Both the position numbers and the translations under genes were made by a program. The notes under the pieces are model-generated. The model saw nothing but the letters and a program-made list of their open reading frames with translations, ran no database searches and was not told the DNA's origin. Below, piece by piece: positions 272 to 3,392 of a stretch of 64,000 nt of DNA. Each line of letters starts with the position of its first letter. Positions within the stretch are counted from its first letter, which is position 1. Location: the NCBI GenBank assembly GCA_016206085.1, contig JACQSF010000034.1:26-64025 (forward strand), in the 5' to 3' direction. Origin of the DNA: Candidatus Uhrbacteria bacterium. Lineage in GTDB: Bacteria; Patescibacteriota; Patescibacteriia; UBA9934; GWF2-40-263.

Positions 272-772
272 ATGCCCAGCACCGAATCCGAAACCACCAC
301 CGTCCGCACCCACGGCCACGCCGAAGGTCACAACATGACCAAGCGCAAGGGCTTGCTCGCCACCGTCGTCGGTACCGTTTCCTTCGAGGGGGAACTCGAG
401 CCCTGGACCCACAAGCCGGCGCGCGACGGCCGGCCGGAGATGTACCGCTCGAAGGTCAACGGCGTGGAGATCTGGCTCAAGGGCGTCACCCCGCCCAAGA
501 CCCGCTCCCCGATCGTGGGAGCCATCGAGGTCAAGTCCAACCAGGTCACCCAGCACGTCGACGGCGGCGACGAGGTCAGCGAGTACTTGTACGTCAACGT
601 CCTGCCCCTCCCCGAGGGCACGACGCCGACGGTAACGGTCTCCATCGTCCGCCCGCCCAAGGTCGGCCAGGGCAAGGACCGCGTCAAGATCCTCCCCCAG
701 GACTTCGACGAGGCGACCGACTTCGTGGTCGAGCGCCAGGGTCAGCCCTGGCAGGTGATCACGGTCCGCTGA
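272..772 (+). CDS. Hypothetical protein (166 aa) with extreme GC3 codon usage; orphan, probably horizontally acquired
   Basis: AGGAGA lies 5 nt upstream of ATG 272, in the frame of ORF 167..772. By my manual count only about 10 of ~166 codons end in A/T. I recognise no motif. Confidence 0.7.
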   Translation: MPSTESETTTVRTHGHAEGHNMTKRKGLLATVVGTVSFEGELEPWTHKPARDGRPEMYRSKVNGVEIWLKGVTPPKTRSPIVGAIEVKSNQVTQHVDGGDEVSEYLYVNVLPLPEGTTPTVTVSIVRPPKVGQGKDRVKILPQDFDEATDFVVERQGQPWQVITVR

Positions 773-883: not shown

Positions 884-937
884 CCTCCCCTTGTGAAGGG
901 GAGGAGAACGCGTTTACCCCTCCTTGAGAAGGAGGGG
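884..937. repeat. Two tandem REP-like GC-rich hairpins
   Basis: CCTCCCCTT-GTG-AAGGGGAGG (884-904) and CCCCTCCTT-GAG-AAGGAGGGG (917-937). Confidence 0.6.
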
Positions 938-978
938 CTAGGGGAGGTCGCTCCGAGTATGCTAAAATTCATCTGATT

Positions 979-2559
979 ATGGAAAGCTCACCACAAAAAT
1001 TCCAAACCGCGTGGCTTGGATACGACGCTCCCTACAAGGATGTTGAATCTCAGCCCATTGTTGCGCTTGTGCGTAAGCAGGGTGTGAAGAAGCGCCTCGC
1101 GCAGGAAGAACACCACATCACCGTCGGGTATTTTCCTGAAGTGAAGCTTGAAGACGTGAACGAATTTGTTCGATCTGGCGAGAAAGATTTTGCCAAACCG
1201 CTCACGACATCAAAAATCAAATTCGATCGTTACGGCTCCATCGCCACAGACGACGGCCACTATGTGTACTTCTCGCCAAGCGAGGATTCAGCCAGCGAGG
1301 CGCGTTTTCTCAAGTCCAGAATCAGTGAGATCGATGGTGTGAGCCAGACAAGCACGACGACCAATCTTCACCTGAGCGTCGGCGGCAAGGATCCGTTTGA
1401 TCACAACAAGGCCCCGCAGGCACCTCTGCCACAGCCATTCTCCGTCGAAGGCCACCTTATTTTTGTGGGCAAAGCCGGCGAGGAGTTTCAACGCTTTTTC
1501 TGGTCAACAGAGAAACAGACATTTCTCCCCGAGGGGTACAAGGAGCCGATAGCGGCTCTACCTGTCCACACCATCGCCATTTTTCCAAAAGTTCAAGTGG
1601 ACACCCTCGTGAGTATTTATCTGTTGAAGGCGTTTGGTGAAGAAGCATTCCCAGGTGTGAAGGAAGCGAAAATTGCGTTCATGAGCAAGGCGCCAGAGGG
1701 CAAGACGCCCGAGGAAACAGAAGCCGAAGGAATGTTGCTCGTCGACCTGGGCGGCATGTTCGATCACCACCGCACCAACACCGAAAGTGGAAAGCGCCAG
1801 GACTGTGCGGCCACGATCATTGCAAGGTATCTAGGCATCGATAAGGAAAAATATCTTGAGAAACTCCTTCAGTGGGCCAAGCGCGATGACTTGGAGGGCA
1901 AGGGCACGATCAGTGAGGATAGTCTCGACCGCGCGTTTGGGTTGAGTGGGGTCATCAGCAATCTCAACCGTGAACTCAAAGAAACACCGCAACAAATCGT
2001 CGAACTCATCCTGCCACTGATTGAGCACCACGTGGATGAGCAGCGTCATCGCGCAGAGGGCCTTCCCAAACTCTACGCGGAGCTTGAGGACGCTGGAAAA
2101 ACGCGACGCTGGAAAATGAAACAGGGAGCGGCAGAGATCAGTGCGGCGGCAGTCGAGTGTGACGATATCGGCATGGCTGGCTGGCTCAAAGCCGTGAAGC
2201 GCATGGACTTGGTTGTCCAGCGCGCACCCACGGGACACACGAACGTCATCACTCGACAAGAGCGATCAATCGACTTGCGGCCAGTGATCGAGAGACTGCG
2301 CGTCGAAGAAGCGATAGCTCTGGGCACTCCCCTCTCGCTTGATAAAACAAAACTACAATCAACCGGCAAAATCGAAGAAGTTCCGATGTGGTACTACGAC
2401 GACGCCGCGAACACCCTGCAAAACGGTGGCATCGACCCGGGACAAATTCCTCCCACCAGGCTTTCTTTCGACAAGGTTATCGACATCCTCACACAAACCC
2501 TCCCTAGCGGCATCATCGGCGCCCTCAAAAGAAGAAAAGAAAAAGAGCTCAAATCCTGA
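979..2559 (+). CDS. Fusion protein: N-terminal 2H phosphoesterase (LigT-like) plus C-terminal DHH/MYG1-like phosphoesterase-type domain
   Basis: Two H-x-[TS]-x motifs: HHITVG (H46/T48) and LHLSVG (H131/S133), 85 aa apart. The C-terminal half has LVDLGGMFDHH (D262-H264), preceded by HTIAIFPKVQVDTLVSIYLLK. Confidence 0.55.
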   Translation: MESSPQKFQTAWLGYDAPYKDVESQPIVALVRKQGVKKRLAQEEHHITVGYFPEVKLEDVNEFVRSGEKDFAKPLTTSKIKFDRYGSIATDDGHYVYFSPSEDSASEARFLKSRISEIDGVSQTSTTTNLHLSVGGKDPFDHNKAPQAPLPQPFSVEGHLIFVGKAGEEFQRFFWSTEKQTFLPEGYKEPIAALPVHTIAIFPKVQVDTLVSIYLLKAFGEEAFPGVKEAKIAFMSKAPEGKTPEETEAEGMLLVDLGGMFDHHRTNTESGKRQDCAATIIARYLGIDKEKYLEKLLQWAKRDDLEGKGTISEDSLDRAFGLSGVISNLNRELKETPQQIVELILPLIEHHVDEQRHRAEGLPKLYAELEDAGKTRRWKMKQGAAEISAAAVECDDIGMAGWLKAVKRMDLVVQRAPTGHTNVITRQERSIDLRPVIERLRVEEAIALGTPLSLDKTKLQSTGKIEEVPMWYYDDAANTLQNGGIDPGQIPPTRLSFDKVIDILTQTLPSGIIGALKRRKEKELKS

Positions 2560-2567
2560 GCTCTTTT
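2541..2567. terminator. Bidirectional hairpin between convergent genes
   Basis: AAAAGAGCTC-aaatcct-GAGCTCTTTT, spanning both stop codons. Confidence 0.5.
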
Positions 2568-2568
2568 T

Positions 2569-3081
2569 CTATCGCTCGTAGTAATACAATTTCGGCGCTC
2601 CCTCGAGTTCATCGATCTTCATCACCTCCCAATCTGGGATCGGCCAGACGTAGGAGACCACCCGGGCGCCGGGTTTCAATTCTGCCTCGAACTTCGGGCG
2701 GATTTTTTGATAGGTCTCAGGCATAAGGAACACATAGAGCGCGTCGTACTCTGAGAGATCATGCTTGAACGCGTTCTCCAGTTTCATCTTAACGCCTGAA
2801 CCAGCCAGCCGATTCTGCAGCCAGCCCACACCGTACTGGAGGATCGAGAGCTCCACGCCTGTCACGTCGGCCTGTGGCTGTTGCTGCTTGAGGTGTCGAC
2901 ACACCCGTGCGTTCCCACATCCAAGCTCCACAAACTTCTCGCCCGGCTGTAGCCCTAACAGTCCCCCCACTCGCTTCATATCCCGCTTCCACGTCGGCAC
3001 CCACGGTGCGCCCTGAATACCGGCATAGGCGGCACTCCCGAGTAGGACGAGGATGATGACAAATAAAATCTGCCAAATCAT
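2569..3081 (-). CDS. Membrane-anchored class I SAM-dependent methyltransferase
   Basis: Start MIWQILF (ATG is rc of 3079-3081). N-terminal TM helix and motif I VELGCGNA. The rest of ORF 2569..3336 is antisense to tRNA genes. Paralogue of 10710..11258. Confidence 0.7.
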   Translation of the reverse strand: MIWQILFVIILVLLGSAAYAGIQGAPWVPTWKRDMKRVGGLLGLQPGEKFVELGCGNARVCRHLKQQQPQADVTGVELSILQYGVGWLQNRLAGSGVKMKLENAFKHDLSEYDALYVFLMPETYQKIRPKFEAELKPGARVVSYVWPIPDWEVMKIDELEGAPKLYYYER

Positions 3082-3122
3082 ATAGACGAGTATACCAAGA
3101 TCGCGTATTATTTTCTCGTTAT

Positions 3123-3197
3123 CGGGCCATAGCGCAGGGGCAGCGCGCTTGCATGGGGTGCAAGAGGCCGTGGGTTCAAATCCCACTGGCCCGACCA
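3123..3197 (+). tRNA. tRNA-Pro (anticodon GGG), CCA encoded
   Basis: Manual cloverleaf: acceptor CGGGCCA/TGGCCCG, anticodon arm CTTGC-ATGGGGT-GCAAG, T-arm GTGGG-TTCAAAT-CCCAC, then ACCA. Confidence 0.85.
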
Positions 3198-3279
3198 ACA
3201 TTGTCGATGAAGAGAAAAGGCTGTAGGCGCTCCGGTTTTTGAGTTCACGAGACGGGAGAGCGATGTTCCAGTGTGGTGT

Positions 3280-3351
3280 CGGGCTGTAGCGCAGGGGTAG
3301 CGCGCTTCGTTCGGGACGAAGAGGCCGTGGGTTCAAATCCCGCCAGCCCGA
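3280..3351 (+). tRNA. tRNA-Pro (anticodon CGG), CCA not encoded
   Basis: Acceptor CGGGCTG/CAGCCCG, anticodon arm CTTCG-TTCGGGA-CGAAG, T-arm GTGGG-TTCAAAT-CCCGC, discriminator A. Confidence 0.85.
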
Positions 3352-3392
3352 CAGCAGACTGGAACCGATAGCCCAAGAAGTCGAACAAAAAA

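Follow-up and report, generated by a model that had tools for sequence, protein, structure and literature searches.

The window analyzed here, a stretch of 64,000 nucleotides from a contig of a Candidatus Uhrbacteria bacterium, carries near its beginning a gene for a protein of 526 aa in which an N-terminal 2H phosphoesterase domain appears to be fused to a C-terminal module of the DHH superfamily (Table 1). The open reading frame (ORF) is real, with some 50 full-length orthologs (40-93% identity) in a word-index homolog search, and the motifs for which it had been singled out in an earlier note, made from the letters alone, are confirmed: HITV (at H46) and HLSV (at H131) are found where that note had placed them, and the string LVDLGGMFDHH is present, including D256 and D262-H263-H264. 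Two details of the note have to be corrected, since the claimed H-x13-D spacing is actually H197-x10-D208 and the 2H domain, thought to span about 165 aa, reaches approximately aa 185 in the modeled secondary structure. When the sequence is shuffled with its composition preserved, a pair of Hx[TS][LIVM] motifs lying 60-110 residues apart arises by chance in 0.35% of cases, a DHH triplet in 1.8% and the combination DxGG-x(2-12)-DHH in 0.005%; such short motifs would carry little weight singly, but in combination they are rare.

Table 1. Features of the fusion gene and of its surroundings (positions in the window).
Feature	Positions	Strand	Basis or remark
Fusion coding sequence, 526 aa, complete	979..2559	+	ORF list; ATG start, TGA stop
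Predicted 2H phosphoesterase domain, aa 1-185	979..1533	+	Foldseek matches to LigT (5ldm) and D. radiodurans cyclic phosphodiesterase (drCPDase, 5h7e); PF13563 in orthologs
2H motif 1, H46-I-T48-V (HITV, aa 46-49)	1114..1125	+	conservation in 62 orthologs
2H motif 2, H131-L-S133-V-G-G	1369..1386	+	conservation in 62 orthologs
HLSV, aa 131-134	1369-1380	+	inside 2H motif 2
Linker, short, aa 186-195	1534..1563	+	length varies between orthologs; alignment A1
N-lobe of predicted MYG1/DHH-like module, aa 196-270	1564..1788	+	modeled secondary structure, hhalign to MYG1
Motif I, Q206-V-D208-T209	1594..1605	+	aligns with MYG1 H-C-D-E
Motifs II and III, D256-L-G-G-M-F-D262-H263-H264	1744..1770	+	in register with MYG1 VDVGG...YDHH
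D256-L-G-G	1744-1755	+	part of LVDLGGMFDHH
D262-H-H	1762-1770	+	part of LVDLGGMFDHH
Helical region between lobes, aa 271-371	1789..2091	+	helices 277-371 in both models
Motif IV-like acidic loop, R302-D-D304-L-E-G-K-G-T310	1882-1908	+	aligns with MYG1 EEVDAVDNG
C-lobe, aa 372-526, alpha/beta, possibly DHHA1-like	2092..2556	+	fold matches, weak C-Ala matches
C-lobe G419-H420-T-N	2233-2244	+	
C-lobe W471...Q481-N-G-G484	2389-2430	+	
Upstream partner ORF, 166 aa from M36	272..772	+	HY626_04300, annotated hypothetical; associated by position only
Sub-threshold Whalefall-1 small RNA match, 5' leader	914-949	+	Rfam, probably chance
Palindromic hairpin over stop codon, 15-pair stem, T-runs on both strands	2538..2570	.	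terminator-like pattern match only
Small class I S-adenosylmethionine (SAM) methyltransferase, hydrophobic N-terminus	2569-3111	-	weak Pfam methyltransferase matches; L007 6563-7057 (-)
Spurious long antisense ORF	2569-3336		overlaps the tRNA-Pro pair
tRNA-Pro (GGG)	3123-3197	+	tandem with the next
tRNA-Pro (CGG)	3280-3352	+	
NUDIX hydrolase and ATP:corrinoid adenosyltransferase (CobA/BtuR) fusion, 333 aa	3965-4966	-	adjoins the next
Ribonucleotide reductase-like ORF, 1461 aa	5471-9856	-	B12-dependent type; candidate intein

Judging from its model and its motifs, the N-terminal part of the protein (aa 1-185) is a divergent 2H phosphoesterase in which both catalytic HxT/S motifs are intact. In a full-length AlphaFold2 model built from 85 sequences, with a mean predicted local distance difference test score (pLDDT) of 95.1 and a predicted template modeling score (pTM) of 0.80, this part resembles E. 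coli LigT/ThpR and the D. radiodurans cyclic phosphodiesterase (CPDase) with E 4e-5 and a Foldseek probability of 1.0. Further Foldseek matches include Usb1, ASCC1, plant CPDase and viral 2'-5' phosphodiesterases (PDEs), the 2H matches as a whole spanning E 4e-5 to 1e-2 at probabilities of 0.95-1.0, and in a viral structure library the domain resembles RNA 2',3'-cyclic phosphodiesterases and Acb1. Conservation points in the same direction: in the 62 orthologs compared, H46 is kept in 60 and T48 in 57, H131 in 58 and S133 in 59, and G135-G136 in all 62, so that the 2H assignment proposed in the earlier note, together with the conservation of its histidines, is upheld by both lines of evidence.

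The domain shares with the LigT/ThpR-type 2H enzymes (PF13563, PF02834) and with the CPD domain of fungal and plant tRNA ligases (PF08302) the two HxT/S motifs and the 2H fold, but it is divergent from all of them and bears a conserved HLSVGGxDPF extension. None of these three Pfam profiles matches the query itself at E<=10, whereas PF13563 is annotated in two of its orthologs (P0013 and P0042) and the 2H domains fused to the module in other proteins match LigT/CPD-type Pfam families directly. In one fused homolog with 57% identity, P0010, part of the 2H domain is missing and so are its two catalytic histidines, and all the motifs of the module are retained.

The remainder of the protein, following a linker in which insertions reach about 70 residues in some orthologs (alignment A1), is on sequence and model grounds a two-lobed module of the DHH superfamily (aa 196-526). 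DHH enzymes hydrolyze phosphate monoesters or diesters, in nucleotides and in short nucleic acids, with the help of two divalent metals. A model of residues 190-526, built with 100 diverse relatives (pLDDT 96.2, pTM 0.90), was compared with known folds, and the 16 best matches in the PDB were all members of the DHH superfamily (E 4e-4 to 5e-2), among them family II pyrophosphatase, the H. pylori structure 6mtz, NrN, GdpP, RecJ and DhhP. Alignments with enzymes of the DHH-DHHA1 type to the module (337 aa) cover 313-400 columns, and Foldseek places phage and giant-virus DHH phosphohydrolases next to it at E 5e-7 to 6e-5, with a probability of 1.0 at E 5e-7. A weak later fold match is the C-Ala (DHHA1-like) domain of AlaRS. 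The N-lobe, made in the model of three strands plus helices, bears motifs I to III, of which motif III (D262-H263-H264) and the aspartate of motif II (D256) are present in the query, while motif I, canonically DxD or HxD, takes the form Q206-x-D208. With the classical DHH-DHHA1 enzymes (NrnA, GdpP/DhhP, RecJ, family II pyrophosphatase, NrN) the module has in common the two lobes and the DHH triplet; it differs from them in its reduced N-lobe, in the helical region of about 110 aa separating the lobes and in the second lobe, where a GGGH motif was not found and the conserved elements are G419-H420-T-N and N482-G-G.

Sequence profiles are far less informative for the module than its modeled fold. 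Whether made with the query, with either half of it or with three profiles of the family, searches of Pfam, NCBIfam and the PDB sequences returned nothing meaningful, and matches to a designed helical bundle, EGFR and MHC were dismissed as noise. The query matches neither Pfam DHH (PF01368) nor DHHA1 (PF02272) at E<=10; among relatives, marginal PF01368 matches appear in 1 of 48 and 3 of 100, and DHHA1 is absent from the families listed for them (all 8 in one set, the best 25 of 50 in the other). The comparison of a single RecJ sequence with the family profile (E 0.21) is uninformative, and a search of the window by motif revealed no canonical DHH gene. The architecture and the superfamily assignment of both halves can nonetheless be held with high confidence, in agreement with the DHH/MYG1-like character that the earlier note had proposed for the C-terminal region: 16 of 16 top PDB fold matches are DHH proteins, no profile search assigned the region to an unrelated fold and, as detailed below, the alignment to a MYG1 profile is in register.

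The conservation pattern of the module, counted over the non-gap positions of 265 relatives, singles out a set of residues that would be expected of a DHH-type active site. D208 is kept in 255 of 256 relatives and D304 in 247 of 258, with D262 kept in 245 and H264 in 248; R441, E444, W471, N482 and G483 are likewise near-invariant, and D256, G258, D262, H263 and H264 do not vary at all in 41 fused homologs. Against this fixed background, six positions switch together between two classes of proteins that are homologous over their full length (hhalign probability 100%, E 7e-66): class A, comprising the query and all the 2H fusions, and class B, comprising about 40 distant stand-alone proteins. 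From class A to class B, the residue changes from Q to H at position 206, from T to E at 209, from D to G at 256, from H to E at 263 (turning DHH into DEH), from H to N at 420 and from D to H at 474, while D208, D262, H264 and D304 remain unchanged. H420 and D474 of the C-lobe thus co-vary with residues of the N-lobe. The simplest reading of co-variation across both lobes is a single catalytic site lined by these positions between the lobes, as DHH enzymes have. D208, D256, D262-H263-H264 and D304 of the first part of the module and H420 and D474 of its second lobe show the behavior expected of residues in this predicted site.

Comparison of profiles links the module most closely to MYG1. An approximate MYG1 sequence, used as bait only, retrieved genuine PF03690 proteins named MYG1 exonuclease in their source, of which 15 were aligned. 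The 100-sequence family profile (A4) aligns with the resulting MYG1 profile over 146 columns with an hhalign probability of 92.2% (E 5.9e-7); two further family profiles (A1 and A2) do so with E 2.9e-5 and 2e-4, and that of class B (A6) with E 6e-3, as against E 0.17-0.39 for reversed-profile controls. A6 aligns with the same stretch of MYG1 as A4, and A1 and A2 with a shorter stretch inside it, around motifs I to III, all three keeping the register of A4. In the A4 alignment, motifs I to IV are in register, QVDT of the family pairing with HCDE of MYG1, VDLGG..FDHH with VDVGG..YDHH, RDDLEGKG with EEVDAVDNG and FGLSGVISNLN with TTTLSARVARLN. The order and tight spacing of the motifs are also those of MYG1/UPF0160, with motif I on the first strand-helix, DxGG just before DHH and then an acidic loop; in class B relatives, motif I even has the HxDE form of MYG1 instead of the QxDT of the query. 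The similarity is confined to the N-lobe and the helical region, and a by-eye pairing of WYY[D/H]..N.L.NGG with FVHASGFIGG of MYG1 was withdrawn because the similarity between the C-lobe and the C-terminal half of MYG1 is not significant.

PF03690 itself does not match the query in Pfam at E<=10, nor is it among the families listed for relatives (again all 8 in one set and the best 25 of 50 in the other), and the MYG1 proteins retrieved are single-domain and eukaryotic, whereas the present family is bacterial, belongs to the candidate phyla radiation (CPR) and is often fused to 2H. Hence, as far as profile comparison can tell, the module is a remote sister of MYG1 inside the DHH superfamily and outside PF03690. 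MYG1 has been experimentally shown to be a 3'-5' RNA exonuclease whose activity depends on the DHH motif (PMC6582341).

A second relationship emerges at the distant edge of the family. The nearest Pfam model by sequence for class B members is ChrB_C (PF09828), which matches 13 of 100 distant stand-alone proteins, all of class B, although only one of them (P0240, 29.6 bits over the N-lobe) scores above the gathering cut-off of 25, and which matches neither the query nor class A members. These matches hint that ChrB_C may itself be a DHH/MYG1-like domain. A literature search found neither a biochemical function for ChrB_C nor anything on a link between ChrB and DHH or on structure 6MTZ. The ChrB_C matches, together with the replacement of DHH by DEH in class B, could also be taken to mean that the module is a non-catalytic, ChrB-like sensor of a ligand or metal and that 2H is the sole enzyme of the fusion. 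We regard this as highly improbable, given that the full DHH-type constellation of acidic and histidine residues is near-invariant over both lobes and that P0010, by losing its 2H histidines and keeping its module intact, argues for the module as the primary activity.

The family to which the module belongs is large. The word-index search returned 172 proteins, many of them of 305-345 aa and consisting of the C-terminal module alone, and an exhaustive search yielded 879 representative clusters (50% identity) at E<=1e-3, nearly all of which match residues 195-510. In a scan of species-representative genomes, all 50 loci found belong to Patescibacteria/CPR, including Uhrbacteria, Parcubacteria, Minisyncoccota, Collier-, Doudna-, Komeili- and Saccharibacteria. 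Several bulk third-party annotation assemblies with the gene (L016, L028-L030, L032-L035, L055 and others) bear the title 'uncultured Gammaproteobacteria' or 'Pseudomonadales'; L055 and L015 are one and the same contig, the L016 protein is 92% identical to the Uhrbacteria protein of the window, and these titles look like placeholder or erroneous taxonomy.

Within this family, 2H is the sole recurrent fusion partner of the module, and it occurs as three subtypes, at either end of the module or in a neighboring gene. Among the relatives that we fetched, two HxTx motifs are present in 18 of 18 N-terminal and at least 11 of 13 C-terminal extensions, and matches to Pfam LigT_PEase, 2_5_RNA_ligase2 or tRNA_lig_CPD confirm the identity of such extensions. 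A long, LigT-like type is found at both ends of the module, its N-end and C-end sets matching each other with E 7e-18, and the same is true of a short, CPD-like type (E 3e-34); the 2H type of the query is related to the other fused subtypes only remotely (E ~2e-4). From these comparisons there are at least five architectures, the product of several independent fusion events between 2H and the module. In three further genomes (L015, L049 and L065) a separate 2H gene adjoins a stand-alone module. At another locus (L048, 867-2109) the fusion appears to be frameshifted or split, with the 2H part and the module in overlapping ORFs of different frames. No cryptic 2H was found in the unannotated neighbors of stand-alone modules at L004, L011 and L014. 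Because three 2H subtypes have been fused independently to the module, at either end, the two are very probably coupled in function.

Our literature search found no description of a 2H and DHH/MYG1-like architecture. An apparent equivalent, gp013 of Rhodococcus phage ReqiPepy6 (531 aa), aligned over its full length in Foldseek and was rejected on account of its unrelated C-terminal part; annotated as hypothetical and encoded beside the terminase gene (L066, 10681-12276), it consists of an N-terminal 2H domain (PF13563), DUF7211 and a Gly-rich tail.

With these elements in place, a function may be proposed. The 2',3'-cyclic phosphate ends left on RNA by transesterifying RNases and toxins block ordinary 3' exonucleases; 2H enzymes open such ends, or cleave 2'-5' bonds, without a metal, and CPR bacteria depend on salvage. 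In the reading that we favor, to which we would assign a probability of about 0.5, the gene product is a cytoplasmic bifunctional nucleotide/RNA-end phosphoesterase that serves RNA-fragment turnover and salvage. The metal-independent 2H domain would open the 2',3'-cyclic phosphate, or cut the 2'-5' bond, of an RNA fragment or oligonucleotide; the MYG1-like module, dependent on divalent metal, would then remove the exposed 2'- or 3'-phosphate and/or trim nucleotides from that end; and between them the two activities would break such fragments down completely, into mononucleotides that a salvage-dependent CPR bacterium can use again. The specific substrate and the order of the steps are put forward more tentatively. 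The notion that one polypeptide opens a cyclic phosphate and then degrades the product, already present in the earlier note, is now much better motivated, since 2H fusions recur independently.

The same two-step chemistry might instead operate on free mononucleotides, and the coupling evidence would fit just as well. As an analogy in function, CpdB (2',3'-cyclic-nucleotide 2'-phosphodiesterase/3'-nucleotidase) opens a cyclic phosphate and then removes the phosphate with a single polypeptide, although it is periplasmic and built from unrelated folds, a calcineurin-like metallophosphatase and a 5'-nucleotidase C domain. In a CpdB-like salvage pathway without RNA chains, the 2H domain would convert 2',3'-cyclic mononucleotides into 2'- or 3'-mononucleotides, which the module, in the role of a pAp-type phosphatase or 2'(3')-nucleotidase, would split into nucleoside and phosphate. 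Hydrolysis of pAp is an activity of NrnA and similar DHH enzymes, Rao and co-workers (2010, cited in PMC7824862) are said to have found that DHH domains hydrolyze 2',3'-cAMP non-specifically, and genes for a class II ribonucleotide reductase (RNR), CobA and NUDIX lie near the fusion gene both in the window and in L008. We nevertheless consider salvage of this kind unlikely, as MYG1, to which profile comparison brings the module closest among characterized proteins, degrades RNA as an exonuclease, the RNA-end-healing tRNA ligase CPD and LigT have their likeness in two of the fused 2H subtypes, and the conserved neighborhood is restricted to one clade.

Several observations weigh against the proposed turnover of RNA fragments by a 2H and DHH enzyme pair, or against parts of it. 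The substrates of DHH enzymes are very diverse (PPi, pAp, nanoRNA, c-di-AMP, ssDNA) and homology therefore does not fix the substrate. Thirty stand-alone loci, that is, most of those with a stand-alone module, have no 2H gene within 4 kb, from which it follows that the module can work without an adjacent 2H. The query lacks any Pfam, NCBIfam or PDB sequence profile match, even at E<=10; its motif I has a single aspartate (QxD), being neither DxD nor HxD; and the C-lobe, when compared with the C-terminal half of MYG1, including the conserved His344 region, reaches E 0.09-0.14, which is no better than the controls. That lobe is possibly DHHA1-like, a character for which the matches are weak. Finally, the fold matches of the module have TM-scores of just 0.18-0.27 with high root-mean-square deviations, and its modeled N-lobe has three strands only, as opposed to the five-stranded sheet of DHH proteins. 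The low TM-scores are likely to stem from the build of the module as modeled, which is hinged, with a three-stranded N-lobe and about 110 helical residues separating the lobes.

The surroundings of the fusion gene show some conservation. Of 29 fused loci, 25 have a partner-type ORF immediately upstream and in the same orientation, and the closest stand-alone modules are preceded by one as well (for example L002 5256-5867, L008 4311-4829 and L017 3140-3745, among others). It is fast-evolving, spans about 165-290 aa around the core motif ...GV.IHLRDGL.P...G.IEIK.R.V...Y.YVN.FP, has no match in Pfam, PADLOC or PHROG, and only 7 close homologs of it were found; weak matches to designed ankyrins in a PDB profile search were regarded as spurious. 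The gap of 130-260 nt between the partner and the fusion gene contains hairpins that differ from locus to locus, but neither a conserved sequence nor an Rfam match that passes the threshold. The sub-threshold Whalefall-1 match in the 5' leader of the window (E 0.13; 19.4 bits, where the gathering score is 37) is probably due to chance.

Downstream, a convergent SAM-methyltransferase gene is kept in 18 loci. It gives a partial match to PADLOC mad2 (E 1.4e-10), which probably reflects generic similarity between methyltransferase domains, and the hairpin that overlaps the stop codon of the fusion gene is a candidate bidirectional terminator common to both genes. In nine non-redundant loci other than the window (including L001, L006, L009 and L019-L021), a RelA/SpoT-type (p)ppGpp synthetase/hydrolase lies 3' of the fusion gene on the same strand. 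The partner, methyltransferase and RelA/SpoT contexts all fall within one clade, and shared ancestry may explain much of their conservation.

Farther downstream in the window, about 0.6 kb from the fusion gene, lie two tandem tRNA-Pro genes, with anticodons GGG and CGG; adjacent tRNA-Pro genes are no conserved feature of the loci. These are followed by the NUDIX-CobA/BtuR fusion and the RNR-like ORF, whose homolog in L008 has ATP-cone and RNR Pfam domains and in which we noticed by eye a candidate intein (...NPC|VTADTLIS ... LLIHN|CSEYMF...).

The neighborhoods also bear on two further interpretations of the fusion. The similarity of some fused 2H domains to the CPD domain of fungal tRNA ligase, and the weak likeness of the C-lobe to the tRNA-binding AlaRS C-Ala/DHHA1 fold, would suit an RNA repair pathway in which 2H and the module heal 2',3'-cyclic phosphate ends to 2',3'-OH and a separate ligase or CCA-adding enzyme restores tRNAs or rRNAs cut by ribotoxins. 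Such a role is quite improbable when about 52 non-redundant neighborhoods showed neither an RNA ligase nor RtcB, a kinase or Hen1 and the tRNA-Pro genes of the window are not conserved. Much the same degree of doubt attaches to the clearance of cyclic or 2'-5' signals, such as cyclic oligoadenylates, A2>p, c-di-AMP/pApA or those of cyclic-oligonucleotide-based antiphage signaling systems (CBASS), whether as an off-switch or as an anti-defense measure. The 2H domain does resemble Acb1 and viral 2'-5' PDEs, and the fold matches of the module include GdpP, DhhP and the SAM-AMP-degrading NrN; against this, the fusion protein has no match in PADLOC or PHROG, no CRISPR, CBASS or cyclase genes were seen in the sampled neighborhoods and the distribution across CPR bacteria is broad and housekeeping-like. 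A housekeeping role, rather than one in defense, is supported by the 879 clusters, the exclusively patescibacterial loci, the absence of PADLOC and PHROG matches and the ordinary neighbors (RNR/CobA, RelA/SpoT), and is congruent with the turnover and salvage of RNA fragments proposed above. Our literature search found nothing on a nanoRNase of Patescibacteria.

The protein is built from two known superfamilies and is therefore not a new kind of system; its C-terminal module, as judged by profile comparison, is an unannotated family remotely related to MYG1, DHH and ChrB_C. If correct, these assignments would provide a fold, a superfamily and a biochemical hypothesis for a large family of 'hypothetical' proteins (879 clusters at 50% identity). 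We take all the sources that bear a name or title to be Patescibacteria/CPR, whose genomes are minimal and whose RNA turnover and nucleotide salvage are poorly mapped, although thought to be essential. The assignments would also add a new bifunctional architecture to the enzymes that deal with 2',3'-cyclic phosphate termini, such as ribotoxins and metal-independent RNases leave behind, and would link 2H cyclic phosphodiesterases to MYG1-like DHH enzymes in the manner of a Rosetta stone, suggesting the kind of RNA ends on which the MYG1 family may act. That the recurrent fusion defines a hitherto unrecognized two-enzyme pathway for RNA or nucleotides with 2',3'-cyclic, 2'- or 3'-phosphate termini, and that by homology MYG1 and perhaps ChrB_C act on such ends too, is a broader and rather doubtful proposal. 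Were it true, it would offer a testable substrate class for the poorly understood eukaryotic MYG1 exonuclease, and CPR bacteria would gain a missing enzyme for the clean-up of nanoRNA and cyclic phosphates.

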